DNA from: an uncultured delta proteobacterium | GTDB taxonomy: Bacteria; Desulfobacterota; BSN033; UBA1163 | NCBI GenBank assembly: GCA_963708295.1 | Contig: CAVPSJ010000017.1 | Span: forward strand, 532,879-596,878 | Length of the DNA: 64,000 nt | Direction: 5' to 3' | Shown: positions 11,532 through 63,999 of the stretch, piece after piece | Layout of the letters: each line of letters begins with the position of its first letter | Numbering within the stretch: position 1 is the first letter of the stretch | The notes under the pieces: model-generated | What the model saw: the letters and a program-made list of their open reading frames with translations, nothing else | What the model was told of the DNA's origin: nothing | Database searches by the model: none | Translations under genes and position numbers: made by a program

Positions 11532-11715
11532 CAGGCTGCTGAAAAACGCCCGTCTTCTTCGTTTCCCTCATCCTTCGTCATTGCGGCGTACGTCCAAGTA
11601 CGCCTCTAGCCGACTCACCAACTCGTCGGCGTGGCTGGAAGTCACTCCTTATTCGTCGTGACGCCACTCTCAGGATTTCGGGAGCCTTGCATCCGGGCAT
11701 TTTTGAGCAGCCTGC
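11531..11715. mobile_element. MITE-like element with terminal inverted repeats
   Basis: gcaggctgctgaaaaacgccc ... gggcatttttgagcagcctgc; relatives at 32139-32308 and (partial) 27563-27704. Confidence 0.75.
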
Positions 11716-11913
11716 GAAAAATGACTTTCTCAGCAACCCGTTAAACACTCACGCTTCTTCCTCCCCTTGATGGGGGAAGGCGGTGCCAAGAGATTGAAAA
11801 ACATAGAGTAGCGTCGGCATTTACTGCCGACGAGCAACTGTCATTTACGACCCCTGCGCGCTATCCTGCCCCATTGCTTACCACGCAGCTGGCCCAAGAG
11901 AATATTCGCTTCC

Positions 11914-12300
11914 TCAGGCGAGCAGAGCACCCCGCTCAGCGAGGAGTTGACGAAGCACGGAACGATGGCAGTGCTGCTCGTCATTGCAATAACATCCGAC
12001 CGAGAAATTCGCATGGTGTGATAATGCAGCGAGCAGATCAAGAACCCGGCTGTTCTCCGGTCGGCTCATTTCCGAACGGTAGCGTTTGATGAAAGCGCGC
12101 CAATCGGCCTCATTCTTAGCCGATTGCGCGGCCTTGACAAGCTGGTCGCTGGGCGCGAGGTTGGGCAGCCACACATCGTAATAATTGCGTGATGCAAACT
12201 CGCTCTTGGGTACGCCTCTGGGCGGGCGCCGAACTGTGCCGATGCGAAGCCCTTCGCCACTCGCGCGGGGACTTCCAAGCTGCACGATACGAACTGCCAT
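11914..12300 (-). CDS. DUF488 family protein (YeaO-like)
   Basis: Start MAVRIVQLG after GGAGG; GLRIGTVRRPPRGVPK, WLPNLAPS, GCYC..E.HCHRSVL. Confidence 0.85.
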   Translation of the reverse strand: MAVRIVQLGSPRASGEGLRIGTVRRPPRGVPKSEFASRNYYDVWLPNLAPSDQLVKAAQSAKNEADWRAFIKRYRSEMSRPENSRVLDLLAALSHHANFSVGCYCNDEQHCHRSVLRQLLAERGALLA

Positions 12301-12364
12301 GGATTCACCTCCCTTGAAGACAACTTCCCATCCGGCATTCCTCCATCCGGAGATAGATCCTGTT

Positions 12365-13711
12365 CTACCATGTCCCTGGCTGGACAAGTGGTCCTTTGGA
12401 GCGAGGCCAACGCGATCGGATTTGTCTTGTCCTGCCGAAATACATTGAAAAATTGAGCCCGAGAGCCGTAAGCCAATTCGTCCGCGGTGCCCGGAACATT
12501 CTACGGAAAACCGAGCGCGGTGCCGCACAGTATTTCTTGGCCCAGAGGAATCCCTCCTCCAATTCTTCGGGCGACATATGGGCCGGTCTGAAGAGGACGT
12601 GGGAACCGTCGAAAAGCCGCCAGTTGGAAGACTCGGGCAAAAGTCTCCCCTCCTTGCTCAATCTTGCTCTCACGCGGGTCGCCGGATAGGGGGTGAGGAT
12701 GCCGAATACAGGGACCTGAATGCCGGCCGTTTGGACAAAGTCCACGGTCTTCCGGAAGATATCTTTTCGGTCGTTTTCATGGCCGAAGATAAAGGCACCC
12801 TCAACGATGATCCCGTGGTCGTGGAAGATCTTGATATACTCCTTCATCCGATCCGTTCGGACCCACGATTTGTGCGAGGCGTCCAGATTCTCTTGGGAGA
12901 TGGATTCAAAACCGATGAAGAGATCGATGCAACCGGATTTTGCGGCGAGGTCGACCAACTCACGATCTCTTGTGAAGGCGACGGAAGCAAAACTTCCCCA
13001 TTTTATTTTAAGCGGGATCAGGGCCCGAAAGATTTCCTTCGCATAATGGGGATTGCCGCCGATATTATCATCCACGAAGAAGACCGTTCTGGATGAGGCC
13101 TGCTCAAGGGAAGTTCGTAGGTCACGGATGACATCCTCCACAGGCCTCAAACGGTATTGGTGTCCAAAGAAGGGAGTGACGGAACAGAAATCGCAGTCAT
13201 GGGGACAGCCGCGCGTGGCCTGGATGGAGTGGAGGAAACGGCGGTGTTTGGGATGAAGCAGGTCAAATCGCGGGTGGGGCACTTTTGTAATATCCGGAAG
13301 CTCCTCACTCTTATAGATCCCCTTCATCCTGCCGTTTTCGAGGTCCGAAAGAACATGATCGAACACCCCTTCTGCTTCACCCACGACGACGGCATCGCCG
13401 TGCTGAAGCGATTCTTCCGGAAGGGCCGAAGGATGCATGCCTCCCATCAAGACGGGGATGCCTTTATTGCGAAAGTGATCTGCCAGTTCATAAGCACGAG
13501 ATGCATTGAGGGTAAGCGTCGAGATGCCTACGAGATCGGCCTTCCGGTCGAGGTCGATCTCCTCGATGGCTTCGTCGGCGACCTGGACTTCCCAACTCTC
13601 GGGGAAAAGGGCAGCCACCGTAATCACCCCTAAGACCGGAAAGACCGAGACAGGCTGTTCGGCCACCACCAGGGATTTTTCTGTTGAAAGGATCAGGAGG
13701 GCTTTTGGCAC
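12365..13711 (-). CDS. B12-binding domain radical SAM protein (paralogue of 7824-9191)
   Basis: LMGGMHPS, QATRGCPHDCDFC, FVDDN, LFIGFES; C-terminal EGFLWAKKYCAAPRS matches EGYLWAQKYICAPRS. Confidence 0.92.
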   Translation of the reverse strand: MPKALLILSTEKSLVVAEQPVSVFPVLGVITVAALFPESWEVQVADEAIEEIDLDRKADLVGISTLTLNASRAYELADHFRNKGIPVLMGGMHPSALPEESLQHGDAVVVGEAEGVFDHVLSDLENGRMKGIYKSEELPDITKVPHPRFDLLHPKHRRFLHSIQATRGCPHDCDFCSVTPFFGHQYRLRPVEDVIRDLRTSLEQASSRTVFFVDDNIGGNPHYAKEIFRALIPLKIKWGSFASVAFTRDRELVDLAAKSGCIDLFIGFESISQENLDASHKSWVRTDRMKEYIKIFHDHGIIVEGAFIFGHENDRKDIFRKTVDFVQTAGIQVPVFGILTPYPATRVRARLSKEGRLLPESSNWRLFDGSHVLFRPAHMSPEELEEGFLWAKKYCAAPRSVFRRMFRAPRTNWLTALGLNFSMYFGRTRQIRSRWPRSKGPLVQPGTW

Positions 13712-55525: not shown

Positions 55526-57265
55526 ATGGATAAAATGGTGAATTTGAGGATCAATGGACGTCAAATTCGGGCGCGTTCCGGGCAGACCGTTTTGGAGGCG
55601 GCCAAAGGCGGCAGGAATCGACATTCCGAGCCTCTGTCACCATCCTGCCATCACGCCCCACGGGGCCTGTCGCATCTGCCTGGTCGAGATTGAGAGGCAG
55701 CGCACGCTTCAACCCGCCTGCACCTTTCCGGTGGCCGAAGGAATGAAGGTGGAGACGGAATCGCCCAAGGTCGTGGAGGAACGAAAATTCGTGCTCCAGA
55801 TGCTCTTCTCGGAGCGAAACCATTACTGCATGTTCTGCGAGATGAGCGGTGACTGTGAATTGCAGGCCCTGGCCTACCGCTACGGGATGGACCACTGGAC
55901 CTATCAGAATCCTTACCCGAAGATCCCCGTGGACGGGACAAGAAAATATTTCATCATGGACCACAACCGCTGCATTTTGTGCCGTCGTTGCATCCGGGCG
56001 TGCAGCGAGCTGGCGGCCAACAATACCCTGGGGGTGAAGTTCCGCGGGGCCAAGACGATGATCTCCGCGGACATGGATTCTCCGTTCGGCGAATCGACCT
56101 GCGTCGCCTGCGGAACCTGCCTTCAGGTCTGCCCCACCGGCGCCCTGGTCGATCGAAAGAGCGCCTATACGGGTCGCGAAACCCAGGTGGAAAGAACGAA
56201 GAGCGTCTGTATGTTCTGCAGCGTGGGCTGCGGCACCGAGATCATCACCCGTTCAGGCCGGGTCCTTCGCGTCGAGGGAGAATGGGAAGAACATAACAAG
56301 GGGGTCCTCTGTGTCGCAGGCCGATTTGAGCCGGTCTACGACAACCGGGAGCGGATCAAGACCCCGCTGCTTCGAAAGAACGGCGAACTGGTCTCCGTCA
56401 CGTGGGACGAAGCCCTGGACACCGATTGCTGAGAAAGCTCAAAACGCACCAAAGCGAACAAGATCGGGGCCTGGACGACCAGCAAGACCCTCAACCTGAC
56501 GATGAGCGAATTCGTGGCCGTCTTCCAGGGAAAGATCGGGCGCCCATGTGGGCGTCCTCGAACCGACCCTGAGCGAACTCGAACTGCCCGTGGGCGGCTC
56601 TCTGAGCGAACTGGTCTCCTCGGACTGCATCCTGGTCATCGGCGCGGATCCCCTCTCCGACCATCGCGTGCTCGGCTATCATATCAAGCGGGCCCGGATG
56701 AAAGGGGCCCAGGTCATCCTTGTATCCGAAAACAAGCAACGAGATGAGCCGATTTGCCGACAAGACAATTCGCCCCGGAGGAATTGGCCAAGGCGATCAG
56801 AATGATGTCAGGGCTGTGCCTCTCCTTCTGTGGTCTACGGCGTGGGAACCGACCCAGAAAGAAGCGGAGAAACTCGCGGTCCTGAAGAGGAAGGCCCACT
56901 TCATCCCCGTCTTTCCGGCCACCAATGGTTATCATGCAAAGGTGTTGGGTCTCCAATCCGGCCTGAACGCCGATCCAGATCGAAATGGCTCTATCTTCTC
57001 CTGGAGGATATCGCTCCCAAGGAGGAATGGATCAAGCGGGCCAAGAAGGCAAAGTTTCTGGTGGTCCATACGAGTTACCACGGGCCCGATCACGGAAACG
57101 GCCGATGTGGTCCTGCCGTCGCTGCTGTGGTACGAGCAGGAAGGCTCGCTCTACAATCTCGAGGGGAAGAAGGTTGCCGTCAGAAAGGCGGTGCCTCTGC
57201 CGGAGGGGTTGATCCCGGAAAATGAGGTGTTGACCCAATTGGCCGCCCGTTTAGTAGGAGGATGA
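55526..57265 (+). CDS. NuoG/HydA/HoxU-like FeS subunit with truncated molybdopterin-oxidoreductase fold (frameshifted)
   Basis: IPSLC..GACRIC..C, H.C..C...C, CILCRRC..C, CVACGTC..CP, CMFCSVGC...LC..GRF, ADVVLP...E.EG; no H-cluster motifs seen. Confidence 0.85.
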
Positions 57266-57308: not shown

Positions 57309-57851
57309 ATGACAAAAGTGAAGGTTGCAATGGATTGGCTGGCCGCATGCGCCGGATGTGAGATGTCCGTATTGGACATGGACGAGAGGCTTGTCCAGCT
57401 CTTGGAAAAAATAGAACTCACCTCCACTCCCATCACCGATTTGAAACATCCTCCCGAAAGAGGGGGTCACGGTCGGGATTCTCTCGGGGACGGTCAACAA
57501 TACGACCAACCTGGAAGTGGTCAAGGAGATGAGGGAGCGGTGCAAGATCCTGATCGCCATGGGAGACTGCGCCGTCTTCGGAGGCATCATGACCATGCGG
57601 AATTTCTTCGATATGGAAGAGGCCCTGAAGAGGGCTTACATTGAAACGGAGAGCACGGTGGATGGGATCATTCCCAGTTCCGAGGAACTGTCGCAAACCG
57701 ATCAAGGCCCGTCCGGTGAATCAGGTCGTCAAGGTCGATGTCCATCTTCCCGGCTGTCCTCCTTCGGCCGATGCCATCTATTACGTTCTCAGCGGAGTTG
57801 CTGGAAGGCCGCATTCCCGTCCTGTCGGGCGACAACCTGAAGTATGATTGA
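57309..57851 (+). CDS. hoxY: [NiFe]-hydrogenase small subunit (HoxY/HydS-like, frameshifted)
   Basis: WLAACAGCEMS, GDCAVFGG, VDVHLPGCPP. Confidence 0.88.
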
Positions 57852-60120: not shown

Positions 60121-60223
60121 TGCCCCGCCAGCGTGAAAATAAAAGTGTCAGTGTCAGTGTGAGTGTAGGTAACTGATTGACTGAAAACAATGCACCCGTG
60201 ACAGATACTAATTTCTGAAAAGA

Positions 60224-60273
60224 CTGGATTCCTGCTGGAGTCTATCCCGATGGAAATCGGGGTAGGAATGACA
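60224..60273. repeat. ctggattcc...ggaatgac palindromic repeat
   Basis: ctggattcctgc...gtaggaatgac hairpin, followed by a REP-like cluster to ~60440. Confidence 0.55.
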
Positions 60274-60463
60274 GCCGGTATCCAGACGGAATCCCCATCC
60301 CCCTCTCAGCCTCCCCCTTGAAGGGGGAGGAGAATAGCAGCTTTCCTCCATCGGGGGAGAACATAACGATCCCTCCTTCAGGAGAAAGGACACAACGATT
60401 CCCCTCCCCTTCAGGGGGAGGGCAGGGGTGGGGGTGGGGTTAATCAGATGTCTATTCAATTAA

Positions 60464-62104
60464 TTAGAAAATAGCAGGGGGCGAATTCGTTTGTGGTTCT
60501 AGTGTCTCCAAACCTCTGCCAGAGTGTACAGTGAGTACCCTTGGATCGAAGTAGTGTTCTATTACTTCCTTCGCATCAACGACCCTGTCTTCCGGAACGA
60601 GAACGGAGATCTCGATATAAGGACCGAAAAAATAGAGCAAGGCCCGGTGATAATAGCCTCTCAAGTGGCAAGGAACTCCTTTTTGTTCAAGGAGGCTTTT
60701 GAGAAGTCCCGCCATTGGAACATCATGCAGCTCCGCTACTTTTATGAGCTGGCTTCCCCTGCTTAGCCGTATTGCCTCTATAAGATCAAAGAGGATGGCC
60801 ACAGCCACAATCAAGCCGATACTATCCAAATGAAAGTTGATGAAAAGATCAAAAAGGGCGTTCGGAACAAAGAGGACGACGCATAAATATAGAGCTGCAA
60901 TGGGAACCATGAACTCAAGACTTCTATCGATATAGCTTTCTTTATCTTTTCCTTGAAGAGATAAAATTGAAGCGTTCCTGTCGTTTAAGAAAGAGACCAT
61001 ACCCTTGGGATTATGAAAGAATGAAGTAAAAAAGTAGTAGAGAAAAAAGAGAATAACGACATAAATGATGTAATACCAAATATGCCCGGGAAGAAGAGCA
61101 ACATATAATTTCTGGAGGGTCGAACGATTCATAAACTCAAAAACCGTTATGGGTAGTCCGATCAAAATTGATCCCCAGTATACCGGTGTTATTCCCGCGG
61201 ATGTGAATTTTAGCGGTATATAGGCTTCCGTGCCATCGTTAAATTTAACCGATATTCTTTTAAATCCCCTTTCCATCAGTACAATAAGAGCTATTAATGA
61301 AATGACTATTATGGCAAATAATAGAAAATACGCTAAGGGACTAGGAGTGTTTTCACGAGGTACCAATTTTATTCGAGGGATGTTTGAAAAAATCCTTGGT
61401 CCATATCCGACGAACATCAAAATGCTTATGCCATGGCCCACCCCTTTTTTTGTAATGAGTTCTGTTATCCATATCGTCAGGAAAGTACCGGCTGTAAGGG
61501 TCAAAGCCGAGATCAGGCGGAAACCCAATCCGGGATTTAATACAACCCGTTCCCAGGAAGATCCAGGCATCGCCTCAAGCACTTGAGCCAATCCGTAGCC
61601 CTGTAAAAAAGCAAGCAGAAATGTCGCAAAGAAAGCTATCTCTTTTATTCTTTTCCTCCCTCGAACTCCCTTTTCTCTCCAAGATTTAAGAGGTTGAATA
61701 AACAACGATAGGATTTCAACTATCATGTATGCGCTTAAATAAGGCAGAATGCCAAGAGCAACAATAGAAAGCCTTTCAAGGGCTGGTCGATCGGCGAAGA
61801 ATCCTCGAAAAATCCCTTGATGGCCAAAAAGTTCTTCAAGAGCCTGAAAGTTGATTCCTGGAACGGGTATGAGTAACAAGACCCTCCATAGGAGAACAAA
61901 ACCAATGGTGTATAAAATTCTTTTGTAGAGATTAGCGGGAATAGGTCTGGAAGGAGTTTTCTGCGTATCTTCTTTTTCAATGACTTCTTCGGACAGCGGG
62001 CTTCCACAATCCGAGCAGTGCGTAAACCCTTCCCGAAATTCTGCAGGACGCCCGGTTTTCTTTTTGTGTGGGCAATCTGGATTCAAACAATAAGCCATCG
62101 TCAC
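60464..62104 (-). CDS. Divergent SecY paralogue with N-terminal Zn ribbon and C-terminal DUF2007-like domain
   Basis: RILYT...R....IPVPGIN, SIVALGILPYLSA, LTAGT....WI.E.IT.KGVGHGIS, YIPLK..SAG; N-terminal CLNPDC...CSDC; C-terminal AGLLKSLLEQKGVPC...ISVLVPED...AKEVI. Confidence 0.85.
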   Translation of the reverse strand: MTMAYCLNPDCPHKKKTGRPAEFREGFTHCSDCGSPLSEEVIEKEDTQKTPSRPIPANLYKRILYTIGFVLLWRVLLLIPVPGINFQALEELFGHQGIFRGFFADRPALERLSIVALGILPYLSAYMIVEILSLFIQPLKSWREKGVRGRKRIKEIAFFATFLLAFLQGYGLAQVLEAMPGSSWERVVLNPGLGFRLISALTLTAGTFLTIWITELITKKGVGHGISILMFVGYGPRIFSNIPRIKLVPRENTPSPLAYFLLFAIIVISLIALIVLMERGFKRISVKFNDGTEAYIPLKFTSAGITPVYWGSILIGLPITVFEFMNRSTLQKLYVALLPGHIWYYIIYVVILFFLYYFFTSFFHNPKGMVSFLNDRNASILSLQGKDKESYIDRSLEFMVPIAALYLCVVLFVPNALFDLFINFHLDSIGLIVAVAILFDLIEAIRLSRGSQLIKVAELHDVPMAGLLKSLLEQKGVPCHLRGYYHRALLYFFGPYIEISVLVPEDRVVDAKEVIEHYFDPRVLTVHSGRGLETLEPQTNSPPAIF

Positions 62105-62128: not shown

Positions 62129-63524
62129 CTACTTGACTTTCGCTCTTTGGGGAAGCTTCGGTTCTATTTCTTTCAACAATTTCCGAGCCTCCTGATGATC
62201 GGGTTTAAGTTTTAAGGCCTGATTCAAGAGGTTTTTTACATGGTCGTAGTCTTTTGGCTCACTCAGAAGTAATGATTTTGCAAACATGAAAACATAGTCC
62301 GGATTTTCTGGAGAAAGCATATAGGCATGGGCAAACTCAACCTGAGTTTGCAGAACGTCCCGTTGGCTGTAGAACGTTAAGCCTTTTTTATAATGATTCT
62401 CGGATTGGGACGAATCTCCAGGATTAAGGAATTCTATCGATGAGAGGATCGCAAGGACATCATCCTCGCCGAGATACCCTTTTATAAACATAATCGTTCC
62501 GCCAATACCTTGAGCGTTCTCCTCATGATACATGGAAAACTCTCTAAAAAACGCGTCTCCTGTTTGCCATTCCTTCAAAAAGCCTCTGAGGTCATCCCTA
62601 TGGATTTCCTTCGTTTCAAATCGTGCCTCCTTTGGGCTGATCAGAGACCGTATGACAACGAGGCCAGGATTCCAATTGTTCGTTAATATATATTTCTCAA
62701 GATTGAATTTGGAATCTGGACCTTAGCATTTTTCCAAATGCTTCGTCCAGCAATTCGTCGTAGGGAAATTGATTTCTCAAGACAATGAATCCCTTTGTGT
62801 TCACTCCCTGGTTTTGTAAACTGACGGCCCATTTTTGATTTTTTCTTTCTGTCCTATTTAACCTTCCCACAGAAAATTCTTTTGGCACTAAAAGTGAGAC
62901 ATTGAGTAATTCAATCTTCCGATATTTTTCCAACACCTCAGGCCTTACCGTTTTCTCTAATATCATGACTTGAGGTCTATCTATAAAAAAAGGATATCCG
63001 AATTTCCATGCGGCATGCACTTTCCAATAGAAGGAAAAGATGATCCAGGAGAAGGAAATGAGTATGATGAATATGGCCAAGAGTCCATGCCAGCTGATGA
63101 ATCTAAATGTGCGCCTCTCATGAAAGAGCGCCTTGACGGGCCCTCTCGACAAGTAAAGCAGTGTGAGAAGAACAAACAAAAACTGAACGGCAAGCGTGAC
63201 ATCCTTTAAACTGTGAGCTCCCCACCATAGGAACTGAGTCAGAATATGGACGGGAAATGTCAGCATGACTGCAATCGCACCATATCTGGCCCAGAATCTT
63301 CTGCGCAGTAAACCGTATCCGACGATGATATTGATCGGAGTGGTATAAAGGGCAATCCCTGTAAAAGCAAAGAAATAATGGATGAGGTCGATATTCCATT
63401 TTATTGTAACAATTTGGAATTTGGGCAGGATGACAGTCCAGATCTCGAACACCGCATAAATGAGTATAAGGACGGAGTAAACCCATAACACAAAAATCGC
63501 CTTTTTGTTGCCTATGGTTTCCAT
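62129..63524 (-). CDS. Multi-TM membrane protein with C-terminal TPR (one frameshift at ~62722)
   Basis: Removing one A joins 63524-62723 to an open frame that runs into 62578-62129; about 5 TM; TPR-like HYKKG...AYMLSPEN...ALKLKPDH. Confidence 0.7.
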
Positions 63525-63649
63525 TTAGCTTTACTGTCGTTCAAAAATTTATCACGGATGTAGTGAAATATATCAGAATTGCGGCAGGCAAGCAATTCGA
63601 ATGCGTTTGCGAGAGAGAACACGAAACAGTTTGCTTCGAAAAGTCAAAG

Positions 63650-63727
63650 CTGGTCGTAGCGAGGAGTCCTACCTTGGTGGACGACGTGGCAATCTGATGG
63701 GATTGCTTCGCTCCACTCGCAATGACA
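63650..63727. repeat. gtcattgcgag...gaagcaatc palindromic repeat
   Basis: Minus strand gtcattgcgagtggagcgaagcaatc...gattgccacg...ctcgctacgac. Confidence 0.6.
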
Positions 63728-63792
63728 TTTGTGTCGCGATGCAAAGCATCATGCGCTCCGGGTAATAAATGAGGTGGGTTTTGTTATTTGTT

Positions 63793-63999
63793 TTAGTTTT
63801 TCCGCATGATGTGGCTGACCGCTTTCTCCAGGCCATCGAGGGTCAGCTCGAACATGGGGAAAATCTCGCGGATGTGGGCGATGCTTCGAGTATAGGGCCA
63901 GTCCTGCGCAAGAACCGGATTGATCCAAACAGAATGGGGGAAGGTTTTGGCGATAAACTGCAGCCTCTGATAACTGGGTTTGCCCGATCTTTCTTCAAT
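63793..63999 (-). CDS. VWA/CoxE-like protein, C-terminal end (partial)
   Basis: FPHSVWINP...W.YT.SI..I..IFPMFELTLDGLEKAV..IM. Confidence 0.7.
   Translation of the reverse strand: MEERSGKPSYQRLQFIAKTFPHSVWINPVLAQDWPYTRSIAHIREIFPMFELTLDGLEKAVSHIMRKN

Follow-up and report, generated by a model that had tools for sequence, protein, structure and literature searches.

A rare SecY paralogue family with a fused DUF2007-type domain, an optional zinc ribbon and remodelled SecA/ribosome docking loops

The stretch of DNA analysed here (64,000 nucleotides, hereafter the window) belongs to an uncultured delta proteobacterium (GTDB lineage Bacteria; Desulfobacterota; BSN033; UBA1163; assembly GCA_963708295.1, contig CAVPSJ010000017.1, positions 532,879 to 596,878 of the forward strand). 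It carries a SecY-like gene whose product consists of a four-cysteine zinc ribbon, a SecY-type core of ten transmembrane (TM) helices and a C-terminal DUF2007-type domain. This protein belongs to the SecY/Sec61-alpha superfamily by sequence and by fold. It fails the tests of housekeeping SecY (score, loops, operon) and those of the accessory SecY2 (model scores, linkage to SecA2/Asp genes). It represents a rare family of SecY paralogues, undescribed as far as the literature was searched, that is spread over several bacterial phyla. The protein is proposed to be an accessory channel or insertase that would work independently of SecA and of the ribosome under the control of its own cytoplasmic domains. 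The descriptive part of this proposal is near-certain; its mechanism has roughly an even chance of being right.

Results

A SecY core that falls outside the known SecY classes

The Pfam SecY profile (PF00344) matches residues 113-440 of the window protein with 174.6 bits (E 4.1e-51; cut-off 32.2), over positions 1-304 of the 306 of the profile. A profile of the family finds E. coli SecY in the PDB (E 5.4e-91) through its positions 50-437 only. Over residues 58-446, the protein is about 30-33% identical to housekeeping SecY, and the blocks conserved in ordinary SecY are kept (TM2b, TM5, the 6/7 hairpin with TM7, TM8 and TM10). An AlphaFold2 model computed with 37 relatives as alignment has a mean predicted local distance difference test score (pLDDT) of 79.2 and a predicted template modelling score (pTM) of 0.70. 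It includes, in order, a small beta ribbon, a disordered linker (residues 42-56), ten long helices with a beta-hairpin (residues 281-299), and a beta-alpha-beta-beta-alpha domain that begins about 3 residues past the last helix (TM10). The best Foldseek match of the model is 8ya3_Y (E 7.9e-18; template modelling score 0.78, normalised to the target); ranks 1-17 are all bacterial SecY and Sec61 is found further down. The best fits are SecA-engaged, substrate-bearing SecY structures, an observation on which no conclusion rests.

The equivalog model of housekeeping SecY (TIGR00967) gives 182 bits, under its cut-off of 253.6. The family shares with housekeeping SecY the ten-helix fold, the conserved blocks and four hydrophobic pore-ring positions. 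It differs by its location outside the ribosomal-protein operon, its remodelled cytoplasmic loops C4 and C5, its extra domains, its dispensability and its rarity. The two SecY2 models score far lower than their cut-offs (NF009082: 72.8 bits, cut-off 353; TIGR02920: 61 bits, cut-off 249.6). Like SecY2, the protein is a second, diverged SecY found beside a housekeeping copy. Unlike it, the protein does not belong to the phyla of the Gram-positive systems and has no SecA2 or Asp genes at its side. SecY2 is also not known to have fused soluble domains. No SecA2/Asp-like gene was found beside the SecY-like gene in the window and in the annotated related loci. A profile search of the genome detected no SecA2, since a single SecA scores above the cut-off. 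An earlier reading, made from the sequence alone, had set the protein apart from SecY2 accompanied by SecA2/Asp; the sub-threshold SecY2 scores and the single SecA bear this out.

The longest open reading frame (ORF) starts with GTG. The true start is probably the ATG at 62098, giving a product of 544 amino acids (aa), because the family alignment begins (M-A/P-F/Y-C) two codons after GTG and a Shine-Dalgarno-like GGAAGG ends 6 nucleotides (nt) 5' of this ATG. The coordinates of all domains and diagnostic residues are given in Table 1.

The fused cytoplasmic domains

The N-terminal ribbon has the layout C6-x4-C11 ... C30-x2-C33, and in 37 members of the family its four Cys vary little or not at all; 34 alignment columns are invariant across these members. 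It reaches 23.9 bits (residues 5-37) with the NCBIfam model 4Cys_prefix_kin (NF045510), whose cut-off is 24. The C-terminal domain matches DUF2007 (PF09413) over residues 454-516 with 28.3 bits, a small margin above the cut-off of 25.7. In the search of the whole genome, DUF2007 scores 32.4 bits and the SecY-like gene holds the only DUF2007 of the genome. The fusion to a zinc ribbon and to DUF2007 claimed by the sequence-only reading is thus present, with the four Cys in place and a DUF2007 score above the cut-off. DUF2007 is essentially uncharacterised in the literature searched. Since it starts about 3 residues after TM10, it would lie on the cytoplasmic face and could hinder docking there.

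The same ribbon, followed by about 15-25 residues and then by DUF2007, also makes up small soluble proteins. These are about 100-180 aa long and fall into 61 clusters, with examples in metagenome-assembled genomes (MAGs) of Acidobacteriota. Their DUF2007 scores are above the cut-off at loci L034 (35.6 bits) and L037 (26.0 bits) and below it at L122 (22.2 bits). The small protein of L030 is 62% identical to residues 3-39 of the window protein (E 2e-16) and 31% identical to its residues 461-515 (E 7e-4). The small proteins and the SecY-like protein therefore have in common the ribbon CPNPxCPH...PAE[FY]...CxDCG and a homologous DUF2007, in the same order. The small proteins differ by the lack of a membrane core, and their two-domain arrangement is not confidently modelled (pTM 0.39). 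Because ribbon and DUF2007 occur together and in the same order as small soluble proteins, the simplest history is that they form one evolutionary unit and that the SecY core was inserted between them. Such an insertion would be geometrically easy, since both ends of SecY presumably face the cytoplasm.

The ribbon is not restricted to these proteins. It also heads a membrane protein of the RDD family (L032, 10007-11242) and a DUF898 membrane protein (L125, 161-1552), and it led to further divergent SecY-like proteins (L029, L107). Ser/Thr kinases (L040) carry a looser version without the PAEF element. The RDD, DUF898 and 4-Cys-prefix kinase proteins (L032, L125, L040; NF045510) resemble the SecY-like protein by an N-terminal ribbon on a flexible linker and differ by bodies unrelated to the SecY core. 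The ribbon thus appears to be an N-terminal module common to unrelated membrane proteins. A second ribbon (CPECG) follows the CPNPxCPH...PAEF ribbon in L032, in L125 and in some Nitrospirota proteins of about 200 aa (L033, 10001-10597).

Sequence searches of the PDB gave no match for either terminal domain; the best for the ribbon, ribosomal protein L37Ae (E 1.7), is not significant. The C-terminal domain alone gave no usable match in a protein atlas. In PADLOC-DB 2.0, no model matches the SecY core; the 28-residue ribbon alone resembles the N-terminus of PD-T4-6 (E 0.0046). A complex prediction between residues 1-45 and 447-526 (37-row alignments) gave a score of 0.01 (mark 0.32), which is evidence neither way.

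A second SecY in the genome and a real family

The genome comprises 20 contigs (91% complete, about 50% guanine + cytosine, GC). A genome-wide SecY search gives two matches: the canonical SecY with 408.5 bits and the SecY-like gene with 176.5 bits. The canonical secY (442 aa) is on the contig designated C4, encodes GGYIPGIRPG and GGTSLLIV, and lies between the genes of ribosomal protein L15 and adenylate kinase, which were recognised from their translations by eye, without hidden Markov models (HMMs). The SecY-like gene is thus, as the sequence-only reading had it, an extra paralogue outside the spc operon: L15 and adenylate kinase stand side by side with the copy of contig C4. One SecA above the cut-off, one SecE and one SecG are encoded in the genome.

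In a search of 5.8 billion proteins, 8000 candidates were scored and 254 of them matched at E<=0.001. The 120 matches listed are 37-99% identical to the window protein and mostly 505-550 aa long; 77 of these 120 have both PF00344 and PF09413 as precomputed domains, and relatives without a precomputed DUF2007 match still align through the C-terminal domain. Scans of genomes and of metagenomes yielded 38 and 79 loci of the family, respectively. Four clusters of the protein atlas (54-76 members each) combine SecY and DUF2007 and are taken as leads only. All four other genomes checked carry a canonical SecY (398-405 bits) together with the fused form. One is a complete Nitrospirota chromosome, another the genome of the cultured Desulfogranum marinum DSM 2058, whose copy is WP_205223583.1 (clade B, see below). 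Intact ORFs of the family are found in more than 100 clusters from at least two phyla. The fusion is not an assembly chimera, because it is shared by these clusters, by five genomes of the same genus, by Nitrospirota MAGs and by the cultured D. marinum. The sequence-only reading had named three outcomes that would speak against it: a sole secY in the genome, no match to the SecY HMM, and a fusion seen in no other genome. All three were looked for and none was found.

Public databases name these proteins automatically, as 'preprotein translocase subunit SecY', as 'DUF2007 domain-containing protein' or as 'hypothetical protein'. No description of a ribbon-SecY-DUF2007 fusion was found in the literature searched, which included passages of 10.1101/202358. 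The suggestion that the class is undescribed agrees with this search, where no account of the family turned up.

Three groups are distinguished. Clade A includes the window protein and members from Thermodesulfobacteriota and Nitrospirota MAGs that are 37-99% identical. Clade B (Desulfogranum, Smithella, Desulfosarcina, Desulfocapsaceae; 26-31% identical) lacks the ribbon, keeps the C-terminal domain and shows in TM10 a GGTS/GGSS that looks canonical. The very divergent clades C/X have a ribbon and a degenerate C-terminal domain. One subclade of clade A also lacks the ribbon. Since the ribbon is missing in clade B and in this subclade, the core is constantly accompanied by the DUF2007-type domain and only optionally by the ribbon. 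A regular-expression tally of architectures shows only that ribbon-less lineages exist, being distorted by mis-called starts and an over-strict C-terminal pattern.

A maximum-likelihood tree (quick search, LG+G4) was built from 63 rows: 38 of clade A (37 of them chosen from the 120 matches listed), 6 of clade B, 7 of clades C/X and 12 canonical, five of which come from the genus of the window. One branch parts the 51 fused proteins from the 12 canonical ones. Its support in the Shimodaira-Hasegawa-like approximate likelihood ratio test is 100 with all columns and 99.5 with the core columns only, in line with a single origin of the fused proteins.

Remodelled docking loops, gate and pore ring

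Landmark columns were counted in the 51 fused and the 12 canonical proteins, with the genome's own SecY as ruler. The cytoplasmic 6/7 (C4) segment, of 27-29 residues in canonical SecY, has 18 residues in 37/38 members of clade A (22 in the remaining one), 20 in clade B and 11-18 in clades C/X. The three Arg columns of its tip, mostly Arg in canonical proteins, hold a gap or Asp in 51/51 fused proteins. In the cytoplasmic 8/9 (C5) loop, which is variable even among the fused proteins, Pro-Gly-x-Arg-Pro-Gly is absent, and the Arg equivalent to Arg357 is found in 0/51 fused vs 11/12 canonical proteins. The replacements by NASILSLQG and DSIGLIV announced by the sequence-only reading are visible in the alignment to the genome's canonical SecY (GGYIPGIRPG, GGTSLLI). 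Its claim that the SecA/ribosome contact loop is lost stands for the Arg357 equivalent, gone in 51/51; it was too narrow, as the change also affects the C4 tip, TM2b, TM7 and the pore ring.

The Gln position of the lateral-gate helix TM2b (presumably Q93 of E. coli) is Glu in 50/51 fused proteins and Gln in 10/12 canonical ones. The Asn position of TM7 (presumably N270) is replaced in 51/51 fused proteins, by Thr in clade A (38/38), Cys or Ser in clade B and Pro or Thr in clades C/X; it is Asn in 11/12 canonical proteins. The pore-ring positions 82, 86, 187 and 191 (E. coli numbering, where 82 and 187 are the residues that we take to be I82 and I187) remain hydrophobic in the fused proteins. 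The equivalent of Ile278 is Ile in 0/51 fused and 11/12 canonical proteins, and is mostly polar in the fused ones. Clade A has Ser (9), Glu (7), Tyr (5), Asp (5), Gly (3), Thr (2), Asn (2) and others at this position, with Tyr in the window protein. Position 408, where the alignment is less sure, is Val (12), Thr (9), Ile (7), Lys (4), Leu (3), Ser (1) or Glu (1) in clade A. The window protein has Val at 408, and Asp-Ser at 402/403 in place of the Gly-Gly of TM10. The plug-holding segment has 19-35 residues in fused proteins vs mostly 34-36 in canonical ones, and its pLDDT is <50.

According to passages of PMC13537251, I86, I191, I278 and I408 are pore-ring residues of E. coli SecY, super-active variants include I278S, I278Y, I278A, G403E, I408G, I408A and changes at G402, C4 and C5 are major contact points of SecA and of the ribosome, and mutations in these loops cause severe translocation defects. 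In passages of PMC4602035, residue 357 of C5 touches FtsY, SecA and uL23, and loop C4 projects into the tunnel of the ribosome.

These data bear on the possibility that the protein is an alternative core of the ordinary Sec translocon, which would associate with SecE and SecG, engage SecA or the ribosome through other contacts, and handle special clients as SecY2 does. Bacterial SecY is its nearest relative by every measure, SecE, SecG and SecA are available in the genome, and clade B retains GGTS/GGSS in TM10. Nevertheless, both docking loops are remodelled in 51/51 proteins, at sites where E. coli mutations are severe according to PMC13537251. The DUF2007 domain, about 3 residues past TM10, would clash with partners on the SecA/ribosome face. 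The score stays under the SecY equivalog cut-off (182 bits, 253.6) and far under those of SecY2, and there is neither a second SecA nor any Asp-like gene. This alternative is considered improbable.

Selection, distribution and loss

Ratios of nonsynonymous to synonymous substitution rates (dN/dS) were computed for seven non-overlapping pairs, taken from 26 pairs (80-97% identity) among 52 intact genes. They are 0.34, 0.30, 0.21, 0.13, 0.26, 0.18 and 0.18 for the whole gene; the SecY-like gene is thus maintained by purifying selection. In the four more diverged pairs, the ratio is 0.05-0.12 for the ribbon and 0.16-0.30 for the core; it is 0.02-0.11 for the C-terminal domain in three of them and 0.23 in the pair L021-L026. 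The overall range for the C-terminal domain is 0.02-0.40.

The gene is rare. Among 40 relatives, it is present in 4/14 other genomes of the same genus and in 0/26 genomes of other genera, families or classes. Canonical SecY is visible in 39/41 genomes (own genome included), the two exceptions being 74% and 82% complete. A fusion-specific probe (residues 401-546), which is a clade A probe and may miss clades B and C, detects the fusion in 2/401 genomes phylum-wide (the window's own included; 1/254 genera) and in 3/301 genomes of the phylum to which the Nitrospirota genome belongs (seed included). Within the genus, canonical SecY proteins are 87-92% identical vs 58-62% for the SecY-like paralogues. 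The GC content at third codon positions is 0.41 for the SecY-like gene, 0.64 for canonical secY and 0.76 for a neighbouring hydrogenase gene. A local GC trough at the SecY-like gene is also seen in a Thermodesulfobacteriota locus (L004) and in the Nitrospirota chromosome (L011).

The gene was lost in six contigs (L031, L111, L112, L114, L115, L126). Both the upstream gene and the initial ~30 codons of the SecY-like gene survive in them, 81-84% identical to the window at the DNA level, after which homology ceases. In L031, homology is back for 41 nt at the extreme 3' end of the gene, which indicates a clean deletion of about 1.5 kb. The SecY-like gene is therefore accessory: rare, compositionally foreign and often lost. 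Its composition and patchy distribution suggest that it probably moved horizontally. No copy of the fused SecY was found among the viral contigs, plasmids and phages searched. Carriage by plasmids or phages was rejected, the matches there being ordinary SecY (<=31% identity).

Loss and fast evolution could also be read as the decay of a duplicate without function of its own. Two copies of the same genus are split or contain stops, clean deletions are found elsewhere, and the gene evolves faster than canonical SecY (about 60% vs 87-92% identity within the genus). Against this, ORFs are intact in more than 100 clusters from at least two phyla, 34 columns are invariant in 37 members, all clades share the same fixed derived residues, and dN/dS is 0.13-0.34, with added domains constrained at least like the core in the more diverged pairs. 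Decay is a highly improbable explanation.

Gene neighbourhood

Neighbouring genes were clustered for 16 loci, then for 71 loci and the window (72 sources), and annotated with Pfam, NCBIfam and PADLOC. In the window, the SecY-like gene is the last one of a same-strand block of low GC. Immediately upstream is the gene of a multi-pass membrane protein that has a TPR region at its C-terminus (membrane-TPR protein); in relatives this gene is undivided (463-469 aa). Further upstream, the 3' end of a gene is cut by the contig end; its relatives encode a 397-aa protein without family match. In relatives, these genes form a trio: AAA ATPase (283 aa), 397-aa protein and membrane-TPR protein of about 465 aa (L004, 6269-9967). 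The trio is also found in L006, L007, L052, L056, L073, L079 and L031. The ATPase has a match to Pfam AAA; among the NCBIfam models, 'MadB family' scores best, with 121 bits vs a cut-off of 475. The membrane-TPR gene is directly upstream in 15/72 sources, all in the clade at >=59% identity; the AAA ATPase and 397-aa genes are upstream in 7 sources each, where contigs extend far enough. Sister loci of similar identity (L005, L060, L062) have PAP2, HAD or molybdopterin-enzyme genes as neighbours, and the other clades have DUF2971, WapI-like, rhodanese, dehydrogenase or DUF4388 genes. The word 'orphan' used by the sequence-only reading is thus not strictly right: in its own clade the gene ends a conserved AAA/397-aa/membrane-TPR cluster, although no neighbour is conserved throughout the family.

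Contigs from which the SecY-like gene was deleted retain the upstream genes: all three in L031 and the membrane-TPR gene in L111, L112, L114, L115 and L126. Because these genes survive the deletion, they provide neither a family-wide partner nor a dedicated motor. One machine formed by the SecY-like protein with the AAA ATPase, as a substitute motor, and with the 397-aa and membrane-TPR proteins is accordingly judged quite improbable. The genes do form a same-strand cluster, with a gap of only about 25-35 nt between membrane-TPR and SecY-like genes, and are upstream in 15 sources (membrane-TPR) and 7 sources each (AAA, 397-aa). Yet this arrangement occurs only in the clade at >=59% identity, L005, L060, L062 and the other clades being different, and the three genes are intact where the SecY-like gene was cleanly deleted. 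The AAA ATPase was rejected as a family-wide motor, as it is kept in L031.

The membrane-TPR gene of the window is frameshifted near 62715-62737, giving ORFs of 275 aa and 149 aa in different frames; with tblastn, residues 1-270 of the L004 protein align in one frame and residues 264-466 in another. Two metagenome contigs (run X1; about 94% similar) lack one base at 62715. Related metagenome contigs, 90-99% alike, were used only for this base difference and for the depth spikes of the repeats described below. Among the 18 sequencing runs listed as sharing words with the sequence, none is an RNA run, and each has a share of at most 0.15. A NuoG-like gene (55554-56432 and 56720-57265, + strand) and a [NiFe]-hydrogenase small-subunit gene (overlapping ORFs 57309-57644 and 57517-57840, + strand) are fragmented too. 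For this reason, assembly indels are likely behind the broken genes near the SecY-like gene; several pseudogenes in one operon are the alternative.

High-copy short repeats are found at two places. Those just 3' of the SecY-like gene consist of sub-elements of about 40-70 bp, with up to 48 copies. Both stretches reach 100-1000 times the surrounding depth in four metagenome runs. They look like repetitive extragenic palindromic (REP) or miniature inverted-repeat transposable element (MITE) sequences flanking the low-GC block. Downstream is a convergent, GC-rich operon of an NAD(P)-linked [NiFe]-hydrogenase. A link with these redox/hydrogenase genes was rejected: they are convergent and GC-rich, and the shared cluster corresponds only to generic molybdopterin and Fe-S domains. 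In L004, a gene (11714-12973, - strand) encodes a formate/nitrite transporter domain with an N-terminal response-regulator receiver, an unusual architecture; its neighbours encode another receiver protein and a histidine kinase of the Cache/HAMP type.

Table 1. Features of the SecY-like gene, of its surroundings in the window, and of its stubs in other loci. Residues are those of the window protein. The stubs are 40-58 codons long.
Feature	Position	Strand	Remarks
SecY-like gene, longest ORF	60464..62104	-	546 aa from GTG, stop codon included
N-terminal 4-Cys zinc ribbon, residues 3-39	61988..62098	-	C6, C11, C30, C33; pattern CPNPxCPH...PAEF...CxDCG
Acidic variable linker, residues 40-56	61937..61987	-	Family alignment and AlphaFold2; pLDDT <50 at 42-56
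SecY-type core, ten TM helices, residues 57-449	60758..61936	-	Pfam, PDB profile match, AlphaFold2, Foldseek
Glu130 codon, TM2b	61715..61717	-	Gln in canonical SecY
Shortened cytoplasmic 6/7 (C4) hairpin, residues 281-299	61208..61264	-	9 residues below canonical; Arg-rich tip gone
Thr301 codon in PLK-x-T, TM7	61202..61204	-	Asn in canonical SecY
Tyr309 codon	61178..61180	-	Equivalent of pore-ring Ile278 of E. coli SecY
Cytoplasmic 8/9 (C5) loop tip, N377-G385 (NASILSLQG)	60950..60976	-	Replaces GGYIPGIRPG
TM10 segment, D427-V433 (DSIGLIV)	60806..60826	-	Replaces GGTSLLI
C-terminal DUF2007-type alpha/beta domain, residues 450-518	60551..60757	-	Nearly invariant GYYHRALLYFFGPY block; pLDDT ~83-93
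C-terminal tail, unconserved, residues 519-546	60467..60550	-	pLDDT <50 at 527-546
Multi-pass membrane protein gene, C-terminal TPR region	62129..63524	-	Ends ~30 nt upstream of the likely SecY-like start
397-aa protein gene, 3' end (last 68 codons)	63793..63999	-	Cut by contig end; 81% identical to L004 residues 330-398
High-copy short repeats	60200..60453		Just 3' of the SecY-like gene, at the edge of the low-GC block; 77 blastn matches in the genome
Second high-copy short repeat stretch	63629..63755		Not similar to 60200-60453
SecY-like 5' stub	L031 9968-10141		Ribbon to ~Cys30, then unrelated sequence
SecY-like 5' stub	L111 1768-1905		Ribbon to ~Cys30, then unrelated sequence
SecY-like 5' stub	L112 1652-1789		Ribbon to ~Cys30, then unrelated sequence
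SecY-like 5' stub	L115 5539-5676		Ribbon to ~Cys30, then unrelated sequence
SecY-like 5' stub	L114 2038-2187		Ribbon to ~Cys30, then unrelated sequence
SecY-like 5' stub	L126 1524-1643		Ribbon to ~Cys30, then unrelated sequence

Discussion

The proposed mechanism starts from a SecY core that would have been inserted into a ribbon-DUF2007 unit. This core would retain a channel or a lateral-gate insertase that is not engaged by SecA, FtsY or the ribosome. Compared with ordinary SecY, its closed state may be intrinsically looser. A pore that is loosened and partly acidic would need some other control, for which DUF2007 and the ribbon are the candidates. The cytoplasmic mouth could be occupied and controlled by DUF2007 and, where present, by the ribbon carried on the flexible linker that precedes TM1.

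The closest system in terms of working would be a prlA-like 'unlocked' SecY with a built-in cytoplasmic module, the loosening of the channel being deduced from the residues. Natural substitutions of the family fall at the pore-ring and TM10 positions 278, 402/403 and 408, as in the prlA-type, super-active E. coli SecY variants described in passages of PMC13537251. The difference is that these variants are single laboratory substitutions in a SecA-dependent SecY, whereas the SecY-like family has also lost the docking loops.

A stronger version is offered tentatively: a self-contained ligand- or signal-gated pore within a cytoplasmic ribbon-DUF2007 sensor, freed of all contacts to SecA, FtsY and the ribosome. 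Opened by its own domains, it might serve motorless export or insertion of a special client or permeabilise the membrane. A related alternative, considered rather unlikely, is a signal-gated pore that is not an exporter: a cue received by ribbon and DUF2007 would open a leaky channel for ions or small solutes, and this could serve stress adaptation or an abortive-infection-type permeabilisation. The polar or acidic residues at the Ile278 position, the Glu fixed in TM2b and the degenerate plug are compatible with such a pore, and so are the lack of a linked motor or substrate gene and the status of a rare, low-GC, often-deleted accessory gene. Some copies lie near DUF2971 or WapI-like immunity genes, in variable contexts. 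The ribbon is similar to the kinase 4-Cys prefix and to the N-terminus of PD-T4-6, a defence kinase (E 0.0046), and the Pfam label of DUF2007 is 'putative signal transducing protein'. On the other side, the match to PD-T4-6 concerns the 28-residue ribbon only, PADLOC has no match for the core, the gene has no known defence genes next to it in the window, and no viral, plasmid or phage copies were found. Moreover, the lateral-gate helices and the SecY-specific blocks, which would be superfluous for an ion pore, are strongly conserved.

Several points weigh against the accessory channel or insertase. No family-wide partner, motor or substrate gene was found in the 72 sources, where synteny exists at the level of subclades only; because of this, the word 'channel' has the retention of the core as its sole basis. 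The ribbon cannot be essential to the mechanism, being absent in clade B and in one subclade of clade A. The AlphaFold2 model of the stand-alone ribbon-DUF2007 protein is weak (pLDDT 66.6, pTM 0.39). The variable plug fits a loosened channel and equally a loss of sealing or of the translocation function. Q93 and N270, taken here to belong to the polar cluster of the lateral gate, are not mentioned in PMC13537251. Long branches could have drawn the fused clades together artificially, and the canonical sample comprises only 12 proteins. Two copies of the same genus (G011:C51 = L005; G012:C5 = L007) carry interruptions, an internal TAA in one case and, in the other, a split into ORFs of 409 aa and 114 aa with stops. 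Finally, several genes in the assembly of the window are frameshifted.

SecY/Sec61 is a universal membrane machine, one of few, and, to our knowledge, is opened and driven in every studied case by a partner docked on its two cytoplasmic loops (the ribosome, SecA or Sec62/63). A SecY kept by selection that has dispensed with both loops and gained cytoplasmic domains of its own offers a natural test of the abilities of the core without partners. At positions where mutations loosen E. coli SecY, this family has substitutions as fixed wild-type residues. The question is directly testable, since the cultured D. marinum DSM 2058 has a copy. If the stronger version above is true, the family would provide the first channel of translocon fold in which fused soluble domains, and not a ribosome or an ATPase, control the gate. 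The family would offer a new mode of gating for study and a first functional handle on two widespread modules, DUF2007 and the 4-Cys ribbon prefix.

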